Of a stretch of DNA of 36,593 bases, positions 6,352 to 27,827 are shown piece by piece. The notes under the pieces were generated by a model, which was given only the letters and a program-made list of their open reading frames with translations, was not told where the DNA came from and did not search any database. Source of the stretch: Promethearchaeota archaeon (lineage in GTDB: Archaea; Asgardarchaeota; Lokiarchaeia; Sigyniarchaeales; SOKP01). The DNA is taken from the NCBI GenBank assembly GCA_016930515.1, contig JAFGGO010000190.1, positions 1 to 36,593 on the forward strand. The letters run 5' to 3'. The translations under genes and the position numbers were made by a program. Position 1 is the stretch's first letter. The number at the start of each line of letters is the position of its first letter.

Positions 6352-7017
6352 TTAAGGAATGTTTGAATCCTTATAATCCCTTATGTAGCGTTTTACCTCC
6401 TTCGCAGGCTGAATAATGCCAAAATGACCTTCACATAATATGTCCGCTTTTAGATCTAAAAGTTTTTGCATTGAATTTTGATAATCATATAAATTCGAGC
6501 CAAATTCGCTATTAAACGGACCGTGAATGTCTTGACCAAACAATACTTTCGTGGAATCAACAATAATTAATACCGAAATTGACCCTGGTGTATGTCCAGG
6601 GGTATGAATACATTCAAATTCGACTGAACCAAATCGAAGAACTTCTTTGTCCTTTTTAAATTTAGCTTCTAATTTCACGGGTTCGTATTTAATATCGTAC
6701 CAAGAGGCTGCTGTTTTAGAATCGAATCCCTTTTCCTCTATAAATTCTGCATCGAGATCGTGAGCGTAAAACTTCAAGTTTTTATTAAATCCGAGTAAAT
6801 CGTGGCAGGCGGCGATGTGATCAATATGACAATGTGTAATGATGCAATGTTTTATGTTCGAAGGATCAAGTCCAATCTTTTTTAAATTCCTACTAATCAT
6901 TCCCGAATCCATTCCCGCATCAATCAACACGAGACCATCGTTACTTTTTGTATTTACGAGAAAAACCGAACACCCACTATCACACACATGATAGATATTC
7001 TTAATTACTTCTTTCAT
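6352..7017 (-). CDS. MBL-fold metallo-hydrolase
   Basis: THCHIDH (HxHxDH), TPGHTPGS, GQD, CEGH. Confidence 0.9.
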   Translation of the reverse strand: MKEVIKNIYHVCDSGCSVFLVNTKSNDGLVLIDAGMDSGMISRNLKKIGLDPSNIKHCIITHCHIDHIAACHDLLGFNKNLKFYAHDLDAEFIEEKGFDSKTAASWYDIKYEPVKLEAKFKKDKEVLRFGSVEFECIHTPGHTPGSISVLIIVDSTKVLFGQDIHGPFNSEFGSNLYDYQNSMQKLLDLKADILCEGHFGIIQPAKEVKRYIRDYKDSNIP

Positions 7018-15654: not shown

Positions 15655-17859
15655 TTATAATATTTTTTTAAGGTTCAATATTAAAGAAGATGGATTGTAT
15701 TTGTCAAATTGATATATCTCAGCTTTAGCAAAATCTTTTAAATTCTTCTTGATGAGATCGGCAGAATATGTGTGAACCCCTAAGGCTTGAGTTGCATAAG
15801 ATTTTTTTGGCTCAAGTACAACGGTGTGTATTTTCTGTTTGGCAAGTTTTTTGGACCAATCTTTTAATTCTTCGACAATAAGTAGGTAATCAGATTCGAC
15901 TTGCGCAACTAATTCGGGATATTTTACCGAAATATTCGCACCACAATCAGAGCAGATAAATATTACAGGAATGACATTCCTATTCTTTAATCGTTCTACT
16001 TTTATTAGTTCCGTGCACTTTTTGAGAGCAGAAGCCATAGGCGTGTATGATTTACCTTCTAAATTCTTTAACTTAGTTGCAGCATTTTTAAAATATACGG
16101 TAGGTTTTTGTAATACGATTGAATCTTTTCCCCTAAAAACGATAAGAGAAATTTTATCCTTTTTTCGATATCCTTCTTTTTGAAGAGATAAAATGACATC
16201 AGTCATTTGTTTTATGACGTAATACATAGAGGCTGAGCTATCTAGGACGAAAAAAAGAGCTAATGGGGCTCGATATTCATATATTTTATCCATGATATCG
16301 TGCTTATCGAAGCGAATGGGGTATTTTATTTCGGAATGGTTGTAGACAATGTTTTCCAAATATTTTCTAATAGTTGCATCCAATGCAATGCTTTTCGGGT
16401 GGTTAATAGGTTTTCTAAATGACACGTACCTCCCTTTCAGAGAAGAAGCCATCTTAATGCGCCTTCCTATGCCTCGACCACCGTAATTTGAAATTCTCTT
16501 GTCTTTTCGAATGTTGTCTAATATAGAAACCATTTTTTTTTCCATCTTATAAATAAATGGAACGATTTGAGCCTCGTTCCAGTAAAGATCAGTGATATTT
16601 TCTTCAAAGGGTAGATTTTTTACCTTCCATCCACCAGCAGGAGTTGATTTTTGCTTTTTTTCAGGTTCTTTAAGTGGAGGAGGTAATTTCTGTTCCTTAG
16701 TTTCTGGAATGTCCAATTTCTTGGGATCGACCTGTTGTCGCTTGAATTCCTCGTATTGCTTGTCCGAGTGACGCAAGGGCCCTTCCGTTTCTGGATTGGG
16801 CTTGTAAATATCTTCGTTTTCATAGACTTCCTTGATCTTTCCAAACACTTCTGCGATTTTGGTTTCTATTTCTTTGGGCGTTAATTCATAGTGGAGAGAT
16901 TGGATGCGGTGTTCAAAAACGAGATCCATCGCCACATTAATATCTTCCTCAGCAATCGAGATTCTATTATTGAGTGCTGCGTGGGCTCGTGCACACCTAA
17001 TAAATGTAATATCTGCTCTTTGAGAAAATACCCCCAATTCATTTACTATTTTAGAAACCATTTCGTAGACAGCGTGGGGAATAACAACTTTCTTGAGAAT
17101 TTCTCGGGCTTTGGCAATTTTCTGACGGAGTTCTTCCTGCTTGTTATTAAATTTTTGTATGAAATTCTTCGGTTCATCGTTAAATTCTATAACTCTTTTA
17201 GTAATTTCTGCCCGGAGATTAGAATCGTCTGGAGCCTCAATTCTCACTTCCAATCCTAGCCTGTCAGCAATTTGTGGTCGAAGTTCTCCTTCTTCGGGGT
17301 TCATGGAACCTACTAGTACGAACCTCGATGGATGGCTGACAGATATACCTTCTCTTTCAATGATATTAATTCCCGATGCTGAAGCATCCAATAAAACATC
17401 TACTATATGATCTTGAAGCAAGTTAATCTCGTCCACATATAATATCCCTCGATTTGCCTTGGCAAGTAAACCAGGATGCAAGCTCTTTATACCTTCCGAG
17501 AGTACTTTATCGATAGAAAGCGATCCACAAACCATGTCCTCAGTGACGCCAAGGGGAAGGTTCACGATTTTCATTTCTTTTAATTCAGTTTCAAGTTTGC
17601 CTTTAGAAATCGTTTCCCTGCATTTTTCACATAAATCATTGACATCGGAATTAGGATCGCACGAAAACTCGCAATTTTTCGAAACAGTTATCTTTGGCAT
17701 GACTTCTACGAGCGACCTGACTGCTGTAGATTTACCCGTTCCCTGGTGGCCAGTTAAAAGCACGCCTCCGATTTGGGGGTCGATAACATTCAAGATTAAC
17801 CCCATTTTCATCTTGTTCTGTCCCAAAATTGCAGTGAATGGAAAATTAATTTTTTTCAT
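15655..17859 (-). CDS. magnesium/cobalt chelatase-type AAA+ ATPase fused to a vWA domain (ChlI/ChlD-like)
   Basis: FPFTAILGQ, Walker A GHQGTGKS, PGLLAKANRGILYVDEINLL, MNPEEGELRPQ; Pro/Lys/Glu-rich linker; vWA MIDAS VLDSSASM and TPMASAL. Confidence 0.9.
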   Translation of the reverse strand: MKKINFPFTAILGQNKMKMGLILNVIDPQIGGVLLTGHQGTGKSTAVRSLVEVMPKITVSKNCEFSCDPNSDVNDLCEKCRETISKGKLETELKEMKIVNLPLGVTEDMVCGSLSIDKVLSEGIKSLHPGLLAKANRGILYVDEINLLQDHIVDVLLDASASGINIIEREGISVSHPSRFVLVGSMNPEEGELRPQIADRLGLEVRIEAPDDSNLRAEITKRVIEFNDEPKNFIQKFNNKQEELRQKIAKAREILKKVVIPHAVYEMVSKIVNELGVFSQRADITFIRCARAHAALNNRISIAEEDINVAMDLVFEHRIQSLHYELTPKEIETKIAEVFGKIKEVYENEDIYKPNPETEGPLRHSDKQYEEFKRQQVDPKKLDIPETKEQKLPPPLKEPEKKQKSTPAGGWKVKNLPFEENITDLYWNEAQIVPFIYKMEKKMVSILDNIRKDKRISNYGGRGIGRRIKMASSLKGRYVSFRKPINHPKSIALDATIRKYLENIVYNHSEIKYPIRFDKHDIMDKIYEYRAPLALFFVLDSSASMYYVIKQMTDVILSLQKEGYRKKDKISLIVFRGKDSIVLQKPTVYFKNAATKLKNLEGKSYTPMASALKKCTELIKVERLKNRNVIPVIFICSDCGANISVKYPELVAQVESDYLLIVEELKDWSKKLAKQKIHTVVLEPKKSYATQALGVHTYSADLIKKNLKDFAKAEIYQFDKYNPSSLILNLKKIL

Positions 17860-18112: not shown

Positions 18113-19480
18113 GTGTCTGTGAAAGGGAAAAAAATATTAATATTGAATATAATATCAATTTCTTTTTTAATAAGCTTGATTTTTAGTATAAATTTTTTAA
18201 TATCCTTAAATAGAATTACTCACAACAATATATCTATCAATTCAAATATCGTTAACGAGGAATCTTGGACGAAAGTCTTGGATGTTAATGGAAAAGCGAT
18301 TTCGATAGCGAATGATACGGAAAATAATATTTATATTCTCTATTATTTACATTCAGGGGGATATTTTTTAGAAAAGTATAATTCTTCGGGACACGCTATC
18401 TTTTCAAAAGAGTTAGGATATCCTGCGATCGATATTTCTGTGGATATTTCTAACAATCTCTATATATTAGCATTTTCTTTTCTCATAAAGCTTGATGATA
18501 TGGGCACTCAATTATGGAATAAAACTCTAGATTTTGAATCAAATGGATTAGATATGGTTTTTGATACGCTAAATAACATTTACATATTAGGATACTCCTT
18601 TATAATAAAGTTTGACAACAATGGAAATCATTTATGGAATATATCAATACCGAGAGCATCGTATGGTTTAGATTATAAGGGAAACATAATAACGCTTGAT
18701 TCTTCGGATAACATCATTATCTCGAGTATAAGTGATTATGACTATTCAATGATATCAAAATATGATATATCTGGAATTCAACAATGGACATTTAATTTTT
18801 CTAAAGGAGCTATAAGTGATTTAGCATTGGATAAAAAAGATAATATTATCGTTGTCTCCAATCAGATCGTGATCAAGTACGACAATAAATGCAATCAACT
18901 CTGGAACTATAGCATAGAAGGTGGTTATTCTAGCATGTTTAATTATGAGTCTACATCCTTGAGCATTGATTCATCGGAAAATGTGTATGTTGCTACTAAT
19001 TTAAAAATCGATAATAGAGATCCTGATATTTTATTTGGATACTTTCTTCAAGGAATAACATCATATGAATTTGGAATTTTTTTGTATAAGTTCAATAATA
19101 CGGGAGGATTATCGTGGAATTGGAGAATTACGGGATGTTATTATTCCTGGAATAACGAAATGATACTTGATTCTGAAGATAATTTATATATCTATGGAGG
19201 GAAATTACCCAATGAGATGATTATATACAAAAATCCGATAGAATTTAACGGAAATTGCGTTCATCAGACATATTTATCGCTCTTGTTTGTATGTCCATTT
19301 ATAACATTATTGATCGGTGTTTCAATACATTTTTATAAAAATCATAAAATCAAAAAAGCTAAAACAGAAAATTACATAATTAATCTCAAGAAACGAAAAC
19401 CAGATTTGAACGTAAAAAAATATTTAGAAAAGAGGCGCGATTTACAACATCATTTGAGGGTCTTTAAGCGAGATTTATAA
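18113..19480 (+). CDS. membrane-anchored beta-propeller (SBBP-like repeat) surface protein
   Basis: N-terminal hydrophobic helix, about 7 repeats of D(S/T)xxNIYI..IKYDxxGxxLWN, C-terminal TM helix and basic tail. Confidence 0.75.
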   Translation: MSVKGKKILILNIISISFLISLIFSINFLISLNRITHNNISINSNIVNEESWTKVLDVNGKAISIANDTENNIYILYYLHSGGYFLEKYNSSGHAIFSKELGYPAIDISVDISNNLYILAFSFLIKLDDMGTQLWNKTLDFESNGLDMVFDTLNNIYILGYSFIIKFDNNGNHLWNISIPRASYGLDYKGNIITLDSSDNIIISSISDYDYSMISKYDISGIQQWTFNFSKGAISDLALDKKDNIIVVSNQIVIKYDNKCNQLWNYSIEGGYSSMFNYESTSLSIDSSENVYVATNLKIDNRDPDILFGYFLQGITSYEFGIFLYKFNNTGGLSWNWRITGCYYSWNNEMILDSEDNLYIYGGKLPNEMIIYKNPIEFNGNCVHQTYLSLLFVCPFITLLIGVSIHFYKNHKIKKAKTENYIINLKKRKPDLNVKKYLEKRRDLQHHLRVFKRDL

Positions 19481-19496
19481 AATTACATCACGAAGA

Positions 19497-20465
19497 TCAG
19501 AATTTCTTGGCAATCTCGTTTAGGGTTGAATCCAACTTGCCAACCGTGGTTTCCCAGCGATTTATAATTTCGTCAATTCTTGGAATCATGGATTCTCGCT
19601 CCTTGAATTCAAGATAATCCTTGAATTCCTTTATGTTTTCTAGCTTTTCTGTAGTATCTGTCACGTATTTATAGATATCTCTTTTCTGTGCCTCGAGGAC
19701 TTCGTGAACTCTTGCTTGTTCTCCTTTTCTTACTAATGTTTGGAGATATTCGTCAAGACCTTGTAATTGTGCAGTTAATTTATTTATCATGTTCTCAACG
19801 GTAGATTCGTATGTCTCAACCACATTTTCTTTGGGCAAGTTCATAGTAACATCAACGACGAATTTTTGCATTTGCACGAGCATTTCTTCGAGGCTGTCGA
19901 AACCTTGTATTTCAAAATCGATCTCGGAATAGGATGCTTGGATGCCTTTTTCTACATCGTCGAGTCGATATATTTTAAAACCAGGGTCGTTCTTAAGCTT
20001 GATGTCGGGGTCTCCTTTCTTGTCAGCGGGTTCAATCTGGCGAGTGAGGCGTAGGGGATTAAAAACTAAGGATATCGCTAAGGGATTGTTCGTTTGATAG
20101 CTAAGGGTTGTCCTGATATCTATGTGGCTCATCATTATTTTAAAACCCGGATGCGTATGCCACCAACCGATCGTAAACTCGGGAGGGTCCCTGCAGATGG
20201 CCTCGTCATCTATAAGTGCTAGGCTGAGATAATCCTCGTCCGTCCACTTATATTGATCGATTACTGCGTCCTTGTCTAATTCTTGGTGCATGATGGGGTA
20301 AGCTTCTGTTACAATTACCTTCGCTTTATTGCCTTTTCCCTCGTTCCGTCCAATAAATATCCCGCTGACTTCTAACCAATCGTCCCGTGGTATCTTGGCG
20401 TTGGCAAATCTCACGGCGGCCGCAACAATGGTCTTATACACCTTTTTAGGAATGATGACTGACAT
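19497..20465 (-). CDS. JAB1/MPN (JAMM) metalloprotease, Rpn11/CSN5-like, with a helical C-terminal tail
   Basis: EVSGIFIG, EAYPI, GWWHTHPGFKIMMSHID (intact E..HxHx7Sx2D), LVFNP, GFKIYRL; about 130 aa amphipathic helical tail. Confidence 0.88.
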   Translation of the reverse strand: MSVIIPKKVYKTIVAAAVRFANAKIPRDDWLEVSGIFIGRNEGKGNKAKVIVTEAYPIMHQELDKDAVIDQYKWTDEDYLSLALIDDEAICRDPPEFTIGWWHTHPGFKIMMSHIDIRTTLSYQTNNPLAISLVFNPLRLTRQIEPADKKGDPDIKLKNDPGFKIYRLDDVEKGIQASYSEIDFEIQGFDSLEEMLVQMQKFVVDVTMNLPKENVVETYESTVENMINKLTAQLQGLDEYLQTLVRKGEQARVHEVLEAQKRDIYKYVTDTTEKLENIKEFKDYLEFKERESMIPRIDEIINRWETTVGKLDSTLNEIAKKF

Positions 20466-20991
20466 GTTTCGATCACATTTTAGTTTTAATCATAATAATG
20501 GTTTCAATATTTAATGTTTTCCAAAAGGAAACATTAATGATTCCCAGCGATTCGTCGTAATACATAGGATAATTAGTTGAAGTGTTAAAATGATTTATAT
20601 ATTCTCTTGATATTATCCGTAATTCAATAATTGGAAAAATATCAGCTTGATCTCTAAAAGAAATAACTCTATATTGGTCAATACCCGTGCTTAAAAACTA
20701 TAATTCACAACTTCCACTAGTTTAATTATCAAAATTTGTCTATATCCTTGGACACCCACTGCTTCTAATATAATGTATTGATAAACATAAAAATCCAACT
20801 TAAATCCTTTTTTTTACATAACTTATAAAAATAAGAAGTGAGCATTTATTAGGTATTTATACTAATAATTGTTTATATTTGATTATTAGAAGAATTTTGT
20901 TAAATTTATAAAATCCGAATCCTATTAAAATAGTAATAATTAATGATAAAAAACCTAGAAAAAAAACTAATTCAAAGGAGTAAAAACAATC

Positions 20992-21666
20992 ATGGCCGAA
21001 AAAGGGTTTGAACCGCTAACAAGCCAATTAGGAATAGCTGGAACGTCGTATAGAATCCAACTAGGTTTGATAAACGAGAAATGGGCATCTCGAATCTTGA
21101 AAGGACGAGATATAATTGACTCTTACATCTTTAAAGAAGAAGACACGGTGAGTGGGCTTCCAAATTCTAACCTCATAGTGGGTTGGGTACTCCGAACCGT
21201 GGCAATTCCAAACATTAATCCCCATCAAATCATGAAAACTACCCAAGCTTTAGTAAAACAAGCAATACAAAAGAAAGAAGAGAGGAAAATGGTACCAACC
21301 GTCTCTGAATCGAGAGAAATTGAATTAGAAAAAGTACCCGAAAACGAACTTAAAAGGCCTACAACAAAGGGATGGGTAAAAGAAGAAGGATCATCAGGAA
21401 TTCAAGATAGTGAAGAAGCAAAGAGAAGAGCCTTCCAAGAAAGAGTTAAAGCAATTAAAGAAGAAAGCGCGCCTCAATCAACGGGTTCTACTGTAAAAAC
21501 AACAAGAACCCTACCCTCCATTCCTTCTGGAGGAGGAGATGCATCTATAACTACACAGGTTCAAAAAACCATATCGACAGCTGGAACGGTATTTTGTCCC
21601 TCTTGTGGTAAGGATATTGATTGGAAATTTTGCCCATATTGTGGAAAACCATTACCTCACGAGTGA
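20992..21666 (+). CDS. hypothetical protein with a C-terminal zinc ribbon
   Basis: Globular N-terminus, charged and Ser/Thr-rich linker, FCPSCGKDIDWKFCPYCGKPL; GGAG ribosome-binding motif at 20977-20980. Confidence 0.8.
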   Translation: MAEKGFEPLTSQLGIAGTSYRIQLGLINEKWASRILKGRDIIDSYIFKEEDTVSGLPNSNLIVGWVLRTVAIPNINPHQIMKTTQALVKQAIQKKEERKMVPTVSESREIELEKVPENELKRPTTKGWVKEEGSSGIQDSEEAKRRAFQERVKAIKEESAPQSTGSTVKTTRTLPSIPSGGGDASITTQVQKTISTAGTVFCPSCGKDIDWKFCPYCGKPLPHE

Positions 21667-21848
21667 TAATATTTTTAATATATTACATTGAATTATTTAA
21701 TTCGGATGCTAATAGTTGGAAATTCACTCATAAAAAAATCAAACATGACCACGAAACATTCATTATAAAAATATCCAATTATAAATAAGGACATTGCATA
21801 GTTGAAAAGCAATTATTTAATTTTTCAAAAAAATCTAAATGTGATTAC

Positions 21849-23555
21849 ATGAAAGACAAGTCCATCGTAATAATAAAACCAGAAGCATATTATAAGATGC
21901 TCGTTCACGTTCTACGATTTGGCTCAAAAACGCGTGAAAAAAGCCAATATAAGGAAGTGATGGGAATGCTCATGGGATACCTTGAAGGAGAAGGAGAAAT
22001 TAAAGATGTAATAATTGAAGACGCTGTACCCGTTTCTCATGGTGGTTCTATTGAAGTCCAATTTGCACCTCAAGATTATATTACTTTTGCAGCCATAGAC
22101 GAAAAGTTTGCTGAAAAAAATTGGTTTACCGTTGGATGGTACCACTCTCATCCTAACCTGAAAGTGTTTTTCAGTGGAACGGACATTAAAAATCAGATGG
22201 GTTGGCAGACTCCAAATCCTAGTGCTATAGGAATCGTGTTTGATCACTATTACTTAGAAACTGACCCTGAATTTAGAAGAAAATACGGTTTAAAACCATT
22301 AAACGAAGGTGAAATAGACTATGGGTTTAGAACATTCAGGCTCGACGATCCTTCAAAACCCAGTACAAACTATCACGAAGTGAAATCTATCGTTGAATTT
22401 CCCGATAACATACATTATTACTTAAAAATTAAAAAGCTCATTGAATGCATTCACGCAAACGAACCCCCAATTCTCGAATTAAACGAGACACCAGATATAT
22501 TCGGAAATGTCTATATTCCATTTGCGAACCAATTTATGTCAGATAGGCCTGAATTAGAAACGAGTTCCATCCTCACGGCTTTTAAGGATGGCGTTTATAA
22601 TCTTTTAGAATCTTCGTTAGAACCCCTGATCTCTTTTTTCAACAAGTTTAGTCAAGAAACTGTTTTGAAAATTGTTGAGAGTAACTTAAAAACTCGTGAA
22701 ACGCTTGTTTCACTAAAAGATATCTTGAGTAAGAAGATGTCTTTAATTCAAAATAATTTCAAATTTTCCTTGTCAAATCTTCTAGATCAATTAGATCTAT
22801 ACTTTTACGATAGGTTTGAAGGTTTTGATAAAGATAAAGAAATGATAAAAGAATCATTGGAAACCTTGAGGGAAACCATATCAGAACGAGTTAAACAAGT
22901 TATTAAAGATATCTCTGAAACACATTATTCGTCTATTTTATCGTCCTTAGATAACAACATAACAATAATTAGTCAATCAAACGAAAACAGCAAAAATAGT
23001 TACGATATGATAGAGAAATCAAAAAATCAATTATCTACCCTTTCACAATTTTTTGATTCAAGCTTAAAATCAATTTCTCAGAATGCAAGCACAATCCAAG
23101 TTCAATCAATAGATACTATAAAAAATAAAATCAACTCTTTAACAAGCTCTCTAACTTCTATTAAATCTCTCTTAGGTAACATCTCAGAAGTGCAAAACCT
23201 ATTTTCAACAGAAATAATTACAAAAATTCATGACTTGCAAGCTAGATTAACTGAACATGAAGATAAGAATAATCTCGAACAACCTGGATCCCCAACAACA
23301 AAGACACCGTTAACCGAAGGAAGTGTTTTAGAGCCTAATACGAGCGAATTATTAGAAAAATTAAGAAGATCTGAAGAAAAAAATAATGAATTGGAAAGAG
23401 CTTTAAATAAAGAACAAGATTCATACAAAAAAACAAGAGAAGAATTAAAAAATCTAACGATAGAAAATCAAAACCTCAATAATAAGCTTGAAAAAAGGGA
23501 AGAAATTTCAAGTGGACCTAGTAAAAAAGAAAAAAAAAAGAAAAAAAATAAATAA
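21849..23555 (+). CDS. JAB1/MPN (JAMM) metalloprotease, Rpn11/CSN5-like, with a long coiled-coil and a polybasic C-terminus
   Basis: EVMGMLMG, GWYHSHPNLKVFFSGTDIKNQ (intact JAMM), IGIVFD, FRTFRL; more than 300 aa of helical heptad pattern; ends KKEKKKKKNK. Confidence 0.9.
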   Translation: MKDKSIVIIKPEAYYKMLVHVLRFGSKTREKSQYKEVMGMLMGYLEGEGEIKDVIIEDAVPVSHGGSIEVQFAPQDYITFAAIDEKFAEKNWFTVGWYHSHPNLKVFFSGTDIKNQMGWQTPNPSAIGIVFDHYYLETDPEFRRKYGLKPLNEGEIDYGFRTFRLDDPSKPSTNYHEVKSIVEFPDNIHYYLKIKKLIECIHANEPPILELNETPDIFGNVYIPFANQFMSDRPELETSSILTAFKDGVYNLLESSLEPLISFFNKFSQETVLKIVESNLKTRETLVSLKDILSKKMSLIQNNFKFSLSNLLDQLDLYFYDRFEGFDKDKEMIKESLETLRETISERVKQVIKDISETHYSSILSSLDNNITIISQSNENSKNSYDMIEKSKNQLSTLSQFFDSSLKSISQNASTIQVQSIDTIKNKINSLTSSLTSIKSLLGNISEVQNLFSTEIITKIHDLQARLTEHEDKNNLEQPGSPTTKTPLTEGSVLEPNTSELLEKLRRSEEKNNELERALNKEQDSYKKTREELKNLTIENQNLNNKLEKREEISSGPSKKEKKKKKNK

Positions 23556-23572
23556 CCAATATAACCATTATC

Positions 23573-24889
23573 ATGCCGACTAAGATTCAAATAGGTATTA
23601 AAAAAGAAGCGTTCAGGAACATGATAACGCATGTTCTCAAATACGCAAGTCACTCTCTCGAGCAGAAGGCGGAAGTGATTGGTATCTGCATGGGAAAGAA
23701 AGACGCACGATTAGAAATAATAAACGCAATACCTTTAACTCACGGAATTGATATTGACATCGCAAATCAAAAGGAAATACTTGATGTGTTTGCTACCACG
23801 GAGGAGCAATATCAGAAAAAGAATTTATTCGTAGTAGGGTGGTATTGTTCCAATCCTAACGCAGGTTTGGAATACGCAGATAAGCATGTGAAAAATCATA
23901 TGTTTTTCAAAAGAACATTTAACAATGATTGTGTGAGTATTATTTTTGACCATGCCCAAATGGTACAAAATCAGAATTTGGGCTTTAAAGCGTTCATAAT
24001 AGATGATTCAGGTGTGAATCAAGTTGAAATCGATCTTGAAATTCCAAAAACTTTCGATTTTTTTAATTGGGTAAAAAAATTCGTTGAAGATTCCCAAAAG
24101 AAAGCCCCGATATTAATCAAGGAGATTAGTGAAGTTACTAATTTAGCACCAAACGATCTCCAAGAAATACCATTACCTCAAGATTATTTTATAGAAGATT
24201 CAGTTAAAGACGAATATGCTCGATTAGAACCCATTTCAGACGGTTTTACTAAAGGTGCGTCAAATTTTTCCGAAATTTTTATGGGACAATTTCTATCACA
24301 ATTAAGCAATTGGTCCCGACAATTTGAGAAAGGAGCAAGAGAAGGACCAATTATAATCCAACAAACCATCGAACAGATGAAAGACGCCTTGTCTCTTAGC
24401 ATGGGAAAGATTGAAAGGTGGTTTTCTAAAGTATTGGAGGAGAAAATTAAAATATTCGAAGAAAGCATGACTAATTACATTGAAGAGCGAATTATTTCTC
24501 AAAATCAGGTAGCTGAACTTGCTTCAAGTACTATAAAAGATGTAATCACTCAAATTAAAGAAACAATTAGAAATAATCTCCAAGAATTATTCAAAAATAT
24601 TAATGATAAATCGACCAATTTAGCTTCACAAATAGAGTATAATATTCAAAATGTTACCGATATAGACAAGAATTTAACTGTTGTTGCAAACGAATTAGAA
24701 AAAATTGTTGATGAGACCACCGTCGTATCTGGACAAATTAATAAAAGTTTCAATTTAATAACTGAAACACTAACTTCAAACTTATCAAATAGTATTGACA
24801 AGCTCAATGAAGAATTATCTTCTATTCAAAAGTTAACTGATGATATTAACCAGAAATTCTCGAATTTAAGAAAAGACTTGGATATCTAA
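23573..24889 (+). CDS. catalytically inactive MPN (MPN-minus) protein with a long helical/coiled-coil tail
   Basis: EAFRNMITHVLKY, EVIGICMG, AIPLTHG, GWYCSNP (both Zn-binding His lost, Ser/Asp replaced), SIIFDH, GFKAF; collinear with the upstream MPN gene, 17-bp gap. Confidence 0.82.
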   Translation: MPTKIQIGIKKEAFRNMITHVLKYASHSLEQKAEVIGICMGKKDARLEIINAIPLTHGIDIDIANQKEILDVFATTEEQYQKKNLFVVGWYCSNPNAGLEYADKHVKNHMFFKRTFNNDCVSIIFDHAQMVQNQNLGFKAFIIDDSGVNQVEIDLEIPKTFDFFNWVKKFVEDSQKKAPILIKEISEVTNLAPNDLQEIPLPQDYFIEDSVKDEYARLEPISDGFTKGASNFSEIFMGQFLSQLSNWSRQFEKGAREGPIIIQQTIEQMKDALSLSMGKIERWFSKVLEEKIKIFEESMTNYIEERIISQNQVAELASSTIKDVITQIKETIRNNLQELFKNINDKSTNLASQIEYNIQNVTDIDKNLTVVANELEKIVDETTVVSGQINKSFNLITETLTSNLSNSIDKLNEELSSIQKLTDDINQKFSNLRKDLDI

Positions 24890-26382: not shown

Positions 26383-26904
26383 TCAAGCACTCGGAATATA
26401 AATATTTGAATCAATTATTCTACGAGCTAGTTCCAATACTGCATCGTTAACCTTGCAGTCGTCAGCTTCAGAAATCTTAATTAAAATTCCACCTTCGCGT
26501 TCTACTTGTTCTTCTATTTGAACCAAATCGAGATTTGCCGTGCTTTCGTTTTCTATTAAAACTAAAACATAAGGAACCTCCATTTTTGTCGTTATGCGAA
26601 TGTCGTTGACCTGTTTTCGAACAATCTCGTAGGAACGATTGTCGTTGATCAGGCCAAATATTCCCATTGCACCCTTGTACAATGAACTGAGAAAGAATTT
26701 AAAACTCGGTTTCGAGCAAACGTCCCAAAATGCCATTGTCACAACTTCACCGCTTTTTGTTTCAATATTTTTCACGAAAACATTAACACCAAGATTTAAG
26801 CGGTAATTATTCTCGAAATGACAGCCAATGAGTCCTTGTACCACGGCATTATTTTCACTAAACCCCGTGTTAATGAAAATAATCTTTAACTTGAAAGATT
26901 GCAT
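26383..26904 (-). CDS. degenerate Rab/Ras-like small GTPase (pseudo-GTPase)
   Basis: Rab-like scaffold FKLKII...F.NNYRLNLGVNVFVKNI...GEVVTMAFWDV...F.FFLSSLYKGAMG...VPYVLV...ISEAD..KVNDAV.ELARRI, but G1, G2, G3 and G4 are all degenerate. Confidence 0.75.
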   Translation of the reverse strand: MQSFKLKIIFINTGFSENNAVVQGLIGCHFENNYRLNLGVNVFVKNIETKSGEVVTMAFWDVCSKPSFKFFLSSLYKGAMGIFGLINDNRSYEIVRKQVNDIRITTKMEVPYVLVLIENESTANLDLVQIEEQVEREGGILIKISEADDCKVNDAVLELARRIIDSNIYIPSA

Positions 26905-27095: not shown

Positions 27096-27827
27096 TTATT
27101 CCAGTTTCGTTAATAATATTCCTGACGAGAGAAACCAAAAAATCAAGCTGATAATGCTCATCCATTCCATGAAGCGATAATAGTTAAGTGAAGGATCAAG
27201 ACTTTCAGTAGTCATGAAGTTTACATTTCCTTCAAAAATTGAAATTAAAATTGCTATTAAAAATAACGAGAAAAATAGGATTACAGGAACGCCTAAAACG
27301 GATTGTAATATCCATTTTTTATCATTTCTTTTTGTTAAAGCTAAAAGGCTTATTGAAAAGACCATAAATTCACAGGAAACAAAGAAAATACCAGCAAATA
27401 ACACATGAAGCAGTGAAAAATCGTGTAAATTAAAGATGGTTAAAAAAAGCCCTCCAATACTCGTTAAAATCATTAGAACGAGGGGGATCAAAAAAAAGTT
27501 TTTTTCTCTTTTTTCATTTTCTTTAACCATTATTCTCACAACATCCAACACAAAAGGAATGGAAAATATTATTGTTAATATCATACATACTGTGAAGACA
27601 TATTGGGCACCATTTCTTGCTCCTCCCAAGTTGCTAATCCAATGAGTTATCATGATATTAGGAGTGTTAATAGGTTCTGTGATTATAAAAACGATCGAAC
27701 TAACTACAAGCATAAATGCTTGAACGAAACCACATAAAATTCCAAAATAAGCTCCTTTATATCTATTAAAAAATTTACTTAATTTCTCTCTTTCGAGTAT
27801 TTTAAATACTTTTTTTGTACTCATCAT
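27096..27827 (-). CDS. DUF998 / Frag1-DRAM-Sfk1-like multi-pass membrane protein
   Basis: About 6 TM helices with WISNLG, LHVLFAGIFF and MEW motifs typical of this superfamily. Confidence 0.65.
   Translation of the reverse strand: MMSTKKVFKILEREKLSKFFNRYKGAYFGILCGFVQAFMLVVSSIVFIITEPINTPNIMITHWISNLGGARNGAQYVFTVCMILTIIFSIPFVLDVVRIMVKENEKREKNFFLIPLVLMILTSIGGLFLTIFNLHDFSLLHVLFAGIFFVSCEFMVFSISLLALTKRNDKKWILQSVLGVPVILFFSLFLIAILISIFEGNVNFMTTESLDPSLNYYRFMEWMSIISLIFWFLSSGILLTKLE

Follow-up and report, generated by a model that had tools for sequence, protein, structure and literature searches.

[quoted passage not shown] In these last pairs an MPN+ subunit is joined to an MPN- subunit in a dimer centred on helix 1, and the C-terminal helices of both are gathered into a coiled-coil bundle (PMC4579573). 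The MPN+/MPN- organization exemplified by Rpn11-Rpn8, CSN5-CSN6 and eIF3h-eIF3f has been described as not known in archaea (PMC6043591). The JAMM1 proteins and desampylases of prokaryotes are stand-alone domains of ~130 aa, and the CsRpn11 of Caldiarchaeum and the JAMMs of the Asgard ubiquitin operons (e.g., G000:C26:1475-2281) are short proteins encoded in or beside Ub-E1-E2 operons.

Here, we analyze a stretch of 36,593 nucleotides (the window) from a Lokiarchaeia genome of the order Sigyniarchaeales, in which three MPN genes (A, B and C) are clustered with a zinc-ribbon gene (Z). The locus consists of two things joined together: a B-C pair, plus A with its divergent neighbor Z. The best overall explanation, to which we assign a probability of roughly 60%, is that B and C form a stalked pair of one active and one dead MPN protein, that A is a separate JAMM isopeptidase and that Z is an adaptor-like protein. 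In the literature searched we found no description of a Lokiarchaeia family of the B/C type. If B-C is such a dimer, it would represent an independent replay of the process by which an MPN duplicate turns into a pseudo-enzyme, and it would bear on the question of whether dependence on the dimer precedes the loss of catalysis.

Organization of the Locus

An ORF check confirmed the coordinates that a first-pass annotation had given for the three MPN genes and the zinc-ribbon gene (table 1), and all three proteins are recognized as MPN by the Pfam JAB profile PF01398 (42.5, 53.1 and 36.4 bits for A, B and C; cut-off 22.5 bits). The motifs quoted in that annotation were also found, in the order A, B, C: EVSG/EVMG/EVIG, GWWHTHP/GWYHSHP/GWYCSNP and FKIY/FRTF/FKAF. 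The divergent gap between A and Z exists, but its true size is that listed in table 1 and not 525 bp; in relatives it is usually 130-250 nt. A scan of this gap that covered promoters and terminators of the bacterial type, and not archaeal promoters, returned only chance-level matches. Transmembrane segments were found in none of A, B, C or Z.

Table 1. Positions of the genes and features discussed, numbered along the window
Feature	Positions	Strand	Size or residues	Remarks
AAA+-VWA gene	15655-17859	-		ChlI/ChlD-like
Beta-propeller gene	18113-19480	+		between AAA+-VWA gene and A
Gene A	19497-20465	-	322 aa	JAMM-intact MPN+; candidate protease
A three-helix bundle	19500-19829	-	residues 213-322	model with pLDDT 93.8, pTM 0.89
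A JAMM motif	20118-20159	-		H-T-H-x7-S-x2-D
A/Z divergent intergenic region	20466-20991		526 nt	AT-rich
Gene Z	20992-21666	+	224 aa	Zn-ribbon gene
Gene B	21849-23555	+	568 aa	JAMM-intact MPN+; candidate protease
B JAMM motif	22143-22184	+		H-S-H-x7-S-x2-D
B stalk	22566-23168	+	residues 240-440	hydrophobic period 3.68, then 3.57-3.60
Gene C	23573-24889	+	438 aa	MPN- in window genome
C degenerate JAMM	23846-23887	+		C-S-N-x7-A-x2-H
C stalk	24197-24883	+	residues 209-437	hendecad period 3.68, then 3.58-3.59

The Tandem Pair of B and C

The catalytic residues of B (E36, H99, H101, S109 and D112) are intact in 28/28 orthologs. In the C protein of the window Glu34 is retained and all three zinc ligands are altered, C92-S-N94 ... 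A102 ... H105 standing in place of H-x-H ... S ... D. The MPN- state is not family-wide, since the active site is fully intact in 53 of the 120 C orthologs (44%) and broken in more than 20 different patterns in the rest; hence "pseudo-enzyme" does not describe the family as a whole, and the transition would have been caught midway. These natural intact and dead variants of C make the role of the MPN- partner directly testable.

In the window C starts 17 nt past the stop of B. Across families f1, f2 and f3 nearly every locus has the two genes spaced by -8 to +17 nt, and this includes loci whose A and Z genes are found at another place. B and C are sister paralogs in the MPN tree (support 99*), within an expansion confined to the Lokiarchaeia, and no full-length B or C was found among 118 Asgard genomes outside the order. 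As judged from its sequence, B-C appears to be a tandem-duplicated MPN pair specific to one Lokiarchaeia order, the only one in which it was found. Some C homologues (P0049, P0113) carry the NCBI label "Hodarchaeota", which we treat as a mislabel; the matching genomes G021 and G024 belong, according to GTDB, to the window's own family. The module is also found repeated as a unit: a second tandem pair of an active and a degenerate gene is present in G039 and G177, and a short tandem pair with both members dead occurs in 4/61 genomes, plus G014.

One could alternatively regard B and C as independent homodimeric paralogs, C being a redundant copy under relaxed selection that has no partner role. 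The long branches of C in the MPN tree and the many independent losses of its active site are in keeping with this idea, as are a dimer surface common to the whole family and the two long paralogs of family f4, which are unlinked. We nonetheless think it improbable: of the 41 f1 genomes nearly all have kept a full-length C ORF adjacent to B, as is the case in f2/f3 too, its stalk length and noncatalytic residues are invariant, and B and C have been lost together in genera g14, g20 and g21.

The Stalks

Long helical tails had been attributed to all three MPN proteins. This holds for C, whose structure model has one continuous helix (residues 209-437), and by homology for B, in which the MPN domain is followed by the post-MPN helix H4, a linker, a hendecad stalk of ~200 aa and a variable C-terminal extension; it does not hold for A, which ends in a compact three-helix bundle. 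The stalk of B measures 201 aa in 26/28 orthologs and residues 215-438 of C cover 222-224 aa in 28/28 aligned orthologs, so that stalk lengths are nearly invariant at identities to the window proteins of only ~40% (B) and 20-40% (C). Their periodicity is that of an 11/3 hendecad (3.68) and not the canonical heptad (period 3.5), with a power of 105-128 at 3.68 versus 1-8 at 3.5; it is the proximal stalk that peaks at 3.68, whereas the distal stalk peaks at 3.57-3.60. Both stalks carry a net negative charge, averaging -7 and -9, and show no charge complementarity.

An 11-residue repeat with a period of 3.68 is also what one would expect if these tails were amphipathic helices of the apolipoprotein or perilipin kind, lying on membranes or lipid droplets instead of forming a protein stalk. 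There are weak Pfam apolipoprotein matches, and profile matches to ApoA-IV and ApoA-I (E 1e-7 to 1e-5). The same profile, however, matches designed coiled coils, NDC80, chemoreceptors and ZorA, which makes the match a generic one; moreover, the tails are acidic and constant in length, and the model zips those of B and C together in register. A lipid-binding role consequently seems highly unlikely to us.

A Predicted B-C Complex

The complex predicted for B(1-470) and C has an ipSAE of 0.61, compared with 0.00 for the best of three controls. In a calibration this mark was reached by 58/80 solved complexes and by 2/110 mismatched pairs, counts that are only approximate here because our own alignments were used. 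The runs share at least 55% of their contacts, with a partner pLDDT of at least 65. Stalk positions predicted to be in contact show higher conservation than the other stalk positions (B, 0.58 vs. 0.38; C, 0.47 vs. 0.36), but at the head interface the residues of B show no excess of conservation over the remainder (0.66 vs. 0.68). The score may owe something to the likeness of the model to solved MPN dimers, and close cousins also pass the prediction, which therefore does not separate a B-C heterodimer from homodimers. Caldiarchaeum CsRpn11 (6fju) is the best PDB sequence match for both B and C, and the elements that form the parallel H1/H4 dimer in its crystals are those of the head interface predicted for B-C; CsRpn11 is a homodimer in the crystal and monomeric in solution (PMC6043591).

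Taken together, the tandem coupling, the asymmetric loss of the active site, the invariant stalk lengths and the predicted complex with its controls make it likely that B and C constitute a hetero-oligomeric MPN assembly analogous to the eukaryotic MPN+/MPN- pairs. In such a dimer helix 1 and the post-MPN helix would bring the two proteins together head to head, and their tails would go on to form a parallel coiled-coil stalk with hendecad repeats and of constant length, ~200-230 residues or some 30-35 nm at 0.15 nm per residue. B would be the zinc isopeptidase half and would remove a ubiquitin-like tag, while C may have been retained as a structural or allosteric partner whose active site many lineages are losing independently of one another. 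The stalk could serve as a spacer and as a docking or oligomerization element.

The modelled B-C pair resembles BRCC36-Abraxas in combining an MPN+ and an MPN- protein through a helix-1 dimer and a C-terminal coiled coil. It differs in that each BRCC36-Abraxas tail is a two-helix hairpin whereas those of B and C are single hendecad helices of 200-230 aa, and in that C is a recent sister paralog of B, with its active site still intact in many orthologs.

Relation to Other MPN Proteins

The nearest outgroup of the Lokiarchaeia expansion in the MPN tree is the JAMM family of the C26-type ubiquitin operons, and the sequences suggest that B and C derive from such Asgard ubiquitin-operon JAMMs; A, B and C differ from these in being unlinked to Ub genes and long-tailed. 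With HvJAMM1 and PfJAMM1 (Prok-JAB) the JAMM zinc motif and fold are held in common (Z 14 to 5ld9), and the NCBIfam desampylase cut-off is missed by far (24 vs. 130 bits).

It had also been proposed that the locus could be a precursor of the lid, CSN or BRISC core. In its strongest form this would have B-C descend directly from the ancestral MPN+/MPN- heterodimer behind Rpn11-Rpn8, CSN5-CSN6 and BRCC36-Abraxas. The structure models resemble Rpn11, BRCC36 and CSN5 most closely in fold, a wider Asgard clade holding A/B/C-type proteins is sister to Rpn11+CSN5 with a weak support of 82, and an AU test on 147 columns tolerates a single clade of eukaryotes+B+C (p=0.15). The same test marginally rejects eukaryotes+B without C (p=0.037), and in the free tree A, B and C lie apart from the eukaryotic Rpn11/CSN5, the eukaryotic rows being Rpn11- and CSN5-like sequences recognized by motif, without Rpn8, CSN6, Abraxas or BRCC36. 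The sisterhood of B and C inside a Loki-only expansion and their confinement to the order are hard to reconcile with such descent, as are the scores against yeast Rpn11 (4ocl_B), which are 30, 29 and 18 bits for A, B and C, compared with the 53 bits reached by a ubiquitin-operon JAMM and the 70 bits of a short JAMM from Asgard archaea.

The C-terminal helices of the Rpn11/Rpn8/CSN5 type gave no Pfam matches (PF13012, PF23594, PF18323), no MitMem_reg, RPN11_C or CSN5_C tail being present, and PDB profile matches stop at about position 158 of 492. A PF01399 search of the genome, which is 94% complete, did not reveal a set of six PCI-domain subunits; its sole find was an unlinked ORF of 793 aa with partial winged-helix repeats, and Bacillus and Methanocaldococcus controls also matched. 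Within the window and the flanks examined, the locus showed no linkage to genes of the proteasome. We consider direct descent very improbable and the precursor proposal unlikely; B-C is probably not an ancestor of the eukaryotic complexes and has probably converged on BRCC36-Abraxas and Rpn11-Rpn8.

Gene A and the AAA+-VWA Gene

The catalytic residues of A (E32, H103, H105, S113 and D116) are kept in 36/38 orthologs, with Thr replacing Ser in the other 2, and the protein carries a conserved Ins-2-like insert. Its top Foldseek matches are 5cw4/6gvw; BRCC36_C (PF18110) matched neither A, B and C nor the 38 A orthologs. The bundle has a spectrin/BAG/syntaxin-Habc-like shape, a generic helical match that implies no homology. 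A is single-copy and near-universal in the order (54/61 genomes) and forms its own clade in the MPN tree. Judging by these sequence features, it is probably a JAMM isopeptidase separate from B-C, and its three-helix bundle may be a docking element.

The first-pass annotation had overlooked the ChlI/ChlD-like AAA+-VWA gene, which supplies the only VWA domain at the locus. In relatives it usually lies directly downstream of A, whereas in the window it is two ORF-lengths away. Its identification as a cobaltochelatase subunit was rejected; cobN is patchy and adjoined by a ChlI/D paralog of its own (contig C3).

A and this orphan ATPase might together form a module that removes a tag and unfolds or remodels its bearer, in the manner of Rpn11+Rpt+Rpn10 or Cdc48-Npl4, an idea compatible with the B-C pair. 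The ATPase gene is present in 60/61 genomes of the order, a distribution similar to that of A and not to that of cobN (23/61), and it follows A directly and co-oriented in most f1 loci and in the f2 genome G177, although in five other f2 genomes it is 12-41 kb away. However, the next gene, encoding an ATP-grasp protein, is equally syntenic, so that inertia would explain the adjacency; a propeller gene intervenes in the window; and similar ATPases occur in further Asgard families that yielded no A/B-type protein. An apparent A-AAA+ fusion in G002 (a 1006-aa ORF) was discarded as the artefact of an assembly gap of Ns. The module is thus a doubtful, if still conceivable, proposition.

Gene Z and the Unity of the Locus

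Z begins with a domain of ~95 aa (a beta-meander plus helices) that occurs across Asgard lineages and has no match in Pfam, PDB or the ESM Atlas; by these sequence comparisons it is an undescribed Asgard-wide domain of no known family. A charged linker with conserved short motifs leads to a C-terminal CxxC-x8-CxxC (C4) zinc ribbon (residues 199-221), which is exchanged for a coiled coil in some f2 genomes. Z may be an adaptor-like protein of the Asgard lineages at large, with a divergent promoter in common with A.

According to the first-pass annotation, A, B, C and Z are subunits of one isopeptidase complex bundled by their helical tails. Synteny does bear this out in part: the order A|Z-B-C recurs in ~23/35 f1 loci, so that the clustering is not due to chance, and the divergent A|Z arrangement is found in several f2 genomes as well. 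Some genomes have a further two dead MPN genes between Z and B, and the H1/H4 surface is common to all the paralogs. But unrelated flanking genes are just as syntenic, the ATP-grasp gene being present in 29/35 loci and one of the roadblock-like kind in 21/35, and the four genes are part of a generally conserved block. Three single-contig genomes (G032, G038 and G179) and five drafts have A but no B/C, the tail of A is a closed bundle unlike the stalks, and in genus g8 Z-B-C sits 11-19 kb from A. The homologues of Z in Asgard lineages outside the order have no MPN neighbor within ~5 kb, which argues against Z as a member. A four-part complex is therefore unlikely; the unit that finds support is B-C, and A and Z look like separate units. 

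A still larger assembly can be envisaged, in which the block in its entirety (AAA+-VWA <- A | Z -> B -> C, with two short, dead MPNs between Z and B in certain genomes) would encode a ubiquitin-processing machine specific to the Lokiarchaeia. We hold this to be quite unlikely; were it true, a VWA-bearing AAA+ motor, a zinc-ribbon adaptor and active and dead MPNs on a 30-nm stalk would amount to an independent reinvention of the principle on which the 19S regulatory particle or BRISC works.

The Ubiquitin System

As the first-pass annotation had noted, the window contains no gene for ubiquitin, E1 or E2, and neither do the flanks listed; such genes are present elsewhere in the genome together with JAMM genes of their own (contigs C26, C187 and C57). 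No gene for a substrate is linked to the locus. The best candidate for the B/C substrate is a conserved stand-alone ubiquitin ending in Gly-Gly (G000:C57:194-445), whose sequence identity amounts to 67-75% in 5/5 test genomes, the ones lacking a C26-type operon among them. Further candidate tags in the genome are the C187 ubiquitin, a precursor with Gly-Gly-Tyr, the C26 Ubls and SAMP/MoaD proteins. That JAMM-E2-E1-Ubl operon was rejected as an obligatory source of the substrate of B/C or A, since their occurrence is uncoupled in both directions: B/C are present and the operon is missing in g8, the reverse is true of G179, G036 and G178, and G032 and G038 have A but lack the operon. Lokiarchaeia possess 4-10 MPN paralogs that have no linkage with the ubiquitin operons of these archaea, a number that would imply a more elaborate de-ubiquitination than simple precursor maturation.

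The A-Z-B-C locus and its catalytic motifs

The window is the entire contig C68 of a 4.0-Mb host genome (190 contigs, 94% complete). The first-pass annotation had placed here three genes for MPN/JAB proteins (A, B and C) and a zinc-ribbon gene (Z), and their open reading frames, Pfam JAB matches and C-terminal ribbon were all confirmed. The resulting A-Z-B-C locus is a real and conserved feature of the Lokiarchaeia; no published description of it was found in the literature searched and it is apparently unpublished.

Coordinates of the locus, its neighbors, and related features (window positions unless a contig or locus is named)
Feature	Position	Strand	Description
A	19497-20465	-	ORF; passes Pfam JAB; complete E...H-x-H-x7-S-x2-D
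Z	20992-21666	+	ORF; zinc ribbon at C-terminus
Z N-terminal domain	20992-21276		first 95 residues
B	21849-23555	+	ORF; passes Pfam JAB; complete E...H-x-H-x7-S-x2-D
C	23573-24889	+	ORF; passes Pfam JAB; degenerate JAMM site
AAA+-VWA gene	15655-17859		ChlI/ChlD-like; after A in most relatives
Beta-propeller gene	18113-19480		membrane-anchored; between A and AAA+-VWA gene; not seen there in relatives
Ras-like GTPase	26383-26904		degenerate
Frag1/DRAM-family protein	27096-27827		membrane protein
Arf/Roc-type GTPase-containing gene	L052:3208-5463; L053:6216-8459		family f4; 750 aa; after A and co-oriented, replacing AAA+-VWA gene
Insert in A ortholog	L047:9563-9593 (G024)		also L166 (G182), L167 (G184), L168 (G185)
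PCI-like protein	G000:C67 (L060:370-2751)		793 aa; N-terminal Cys-rich fingers, tandem PCI-like winged-helix repeats
Ubls	G000:C26:4446-4808 and 6607-6972 (L146)		acidic N-termini; end in single Gly + two residues
Third Ubl domain copy	C26:5768-6616		fused to membrane protein
Loki MPN+ paralogs	G000:C185:3528-5042; C32:30402-31652		conserved; unlinked to A-Z-B-C locus; one with TPR/SNAP-like repeats, one with helical tail
Putative JAB-ATPase protein	L110:3780-5867 (G048)		other Asgard family

The full zinc-protease (JAMM) motif is present in 36 of 38 A orthologs (Thr replaces Ser in the other two) and in all 28 B sequences, but in only 53 of 120 C sequences. In the window's C, the Glu is kept and His, His, and Asp have become Cys, Asn, and His. 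The broken sites fall into more than 20 different patterns, which argues for repeated independent decay of the site in a gene otherwise retained whole.

Within the JAMM motif of A orthologs from four genomes of one genus there is a candidate archaeal mRNA intron: an insert of 28-31 nt, containing stops or a frameshift, lies directly 3' of the H-x-H-P-G-F codons and is predicted to fold as a hairpin with bulge-helix-bulge-like pairing on its flanks. The window copy of A has no such insert.

Gene order and distribution

The window's family was compared at 35 A-centred loci: 30 have Z divergent from A, about 23 show the complete A|Z-B-C order, and several of the rest are cut off by the end of a contig. 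Other unrelated genes of the same block are retained at similar frequency (among them the AAA+-VWA gene, an ATP-grasp gene in 29/35, and a roadblock-like gene in 21/35), so that inheritance of gene order accounts for most of the four-gene synteny within the family. The B-C spacing is -8 to +17 nt in nearly every case, and this adjacency outlasts rearrangement: in genus g8, Z-B-C lies 11-19 kb from A, and in families f2 and f3, B-C stands without A or Z. Of the linkage from which a single four-protein assembly had been proposed, it is the B-C part that persists; A and Z are probably separate units.

The AAA+-VWA gene, missed in the first-pass annotation, is found in 60 of the 61 genomes of the order (63-80% identity across the family). 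Since cobN occurs in only 23 of them, with its own ChlI/D paralog beside it, this gene is an orphan ATPase independent of cobN. Its distribution resembles that of A; a functional link is doubtful, because the next gene is equally conserved and inherited gene order also explains the adjacency. In genus g17, the genes after A encode a nucleoside-kinase-like protein, a MoxR-like AAA protein, and a VWA protein.

A is present in 54 of the 61 genomes. B/C matches extend over 40 of 41 genomes of the window's family, family f3, and four genera of f2. The same scan found no B/C in genera g14, g20, and g21, including three single-contig genomes that keep A (G032, G038, G179). In 118 Asgard genomes outside the order no full-length B was found, the B profile matching just short proteins (213-306 aa) of the ubiquitin-operon type. 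The MPN pair module itself recurs as a unit: a second tandem active and degenerate pair with shorter tails exists in G039 and G177, and in five genomes (G009, G014, G037, G039, G177) two dead MPNs lacking tails stand in tandem, directly before B-C in G014 and G039.

The N-terminal domain of Z, without a match in Pfam, PDB, or Atlas, is undescribed. Seven other Asgard families carry one copy of it, joined to other domains at the C-terminus (L126-L145); in the 17 of these loci that were read, there was no MPN gene within ~5 kb. In several lineages its C-terminal partner is, judged by eye, probably 4VR-like; in family f5 it is itself C-terminal, and in Lokiarchaeia a Zn ribbon or coiled coil follows it.

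Predicted architecture of the B-C pair

Long helical tails had been attributed to all three MPN proteins. This holds for B and C, but in A the AlphaFold model (38-row alignment; pLDDT 93.8, pTM 0.89) places after the MPN domain a closed three-helix bundle (213-322), whose likeness to spectrin, BAG, and syntaxin bundles is generic (Z score about 10-11) and whose sole ESM Atlas match is an unnamed Promethearchaeota cluster (TM 0.92). In the model of C, the MPN domain leads into helix H4, and a flexible linker connects this to one continuous helix of ~230 residues; the first 450 residues of B are homologous to C. The proximal stalks of both have a hydrophobic period of 3.68 (hendecad) rather than 3.5, and the stalks are net acidic, nearly indel-free, and of fixed length: 26 of 28 B orthologs have 201 aa, and all 28 C orthologs have 222-224 aa.

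B(1-470) and C scored above controls in complex prediction (ipSAE 0.61; best control 0.00), a score that does not separate heterodimer from homodimer. Of 80 solved complexes, 58 reach this ipSAE mark, as do 2 of 110 mismatched pairs, rough counts because our own alignments were used; runs share at least 55% of contacts, with partner pLDDT of at least 65. Helix 1 (11-29) and the segment that follows the MPN domain (182-207 in B, 155-181 in C) are predicted to cross between the heads, beyond which the stalks run parallel and in register. Within the stalk, positions in contact show higher conservation than the remainder; the head contacts of B show no such excess. The pass may stem from likeness to solved MPN dimers, since H1/H4 forms the CsRpn11 crystal interface (PMC6043591) and helix 1 with a coiled-coil bundle that of BRCC36-KIAA0157 (PMC4579573). 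The best-supported core of the locus is probably an MPN pair of enzyme (B) and pseudo-enzyme (C) carried on a hendecad stalk of fixed length, which would work like BRCC36-Abraxas but belongs to neither BRISC nor the PCI complexes.

Ancestry of the long MPN proteins

The MPN tree (107 rows, 147 columns) contained Rpn11- and CSN5-like eukaryotic rows, identified by motif, and no Rpn8, CSN6, Abraxas, or BRCC36. It makes B and C sisters (support 99), except for three C rows on long branches, and sets A in a clade by itself (97). All long Loki MPNs cluster together (93), then with the Asgard-wide ubiquitin-operon JAMMs (95). A precursor of the eukaryotic complexes had been suggested, but the eukaryotic rows form a separate clade (100) only weakly joined (82) to this group; AU tests marginally rejected eukaryotes with B without C (p=0.037) and did not reject eukaryotes with B and C (p=0.15). 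Comparison with one yeast Rpn11 chain gives 30 bits for A, 29 for B, and 18 for C, but 53 for the ubiquitin-operon JAMM and 70 for a short JAMM from Asgard archaea. Neither a PCI set nor eukaryotic MPN tail domains were found. We read the long Loki MPNs as a lineage-specific expansion that probably converged on the eukaryotic design, tree resolution being low. The PCI-like protein on C67 is the genome's only PF01399 match.

Ubiquitin genes and a candidate substrate

The genome encodes seven JAB proteins: A, B, C, two in ubiquitin operons, one MPN-TPR, and one MPN with a shorter helical tail. The operons are JAMM-E2-E1-Ubl on C26 and JAMM-E1-E2 opposite Ub on C187. The C26 type was rejected as an obligatory partner of B/C or A, with neither of which it co-occurs. 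The best candidate tag would be a stand-alone 83-aa ubiquitin on C57, which ends in Gly-Gly, plus or minus one extra residue, and is 67-75% identical in 5/5 test genomes, regardless of B/C or operon status.

The two C26 Ubls, in the same operon as E1, E2, and JAMM, resemble the Ufm1-like precursor pattern. In the other Asgard family, the JAB domain of the G048 protein appears, by eye, to be joined to a type II/IV secretion-type ATPase.
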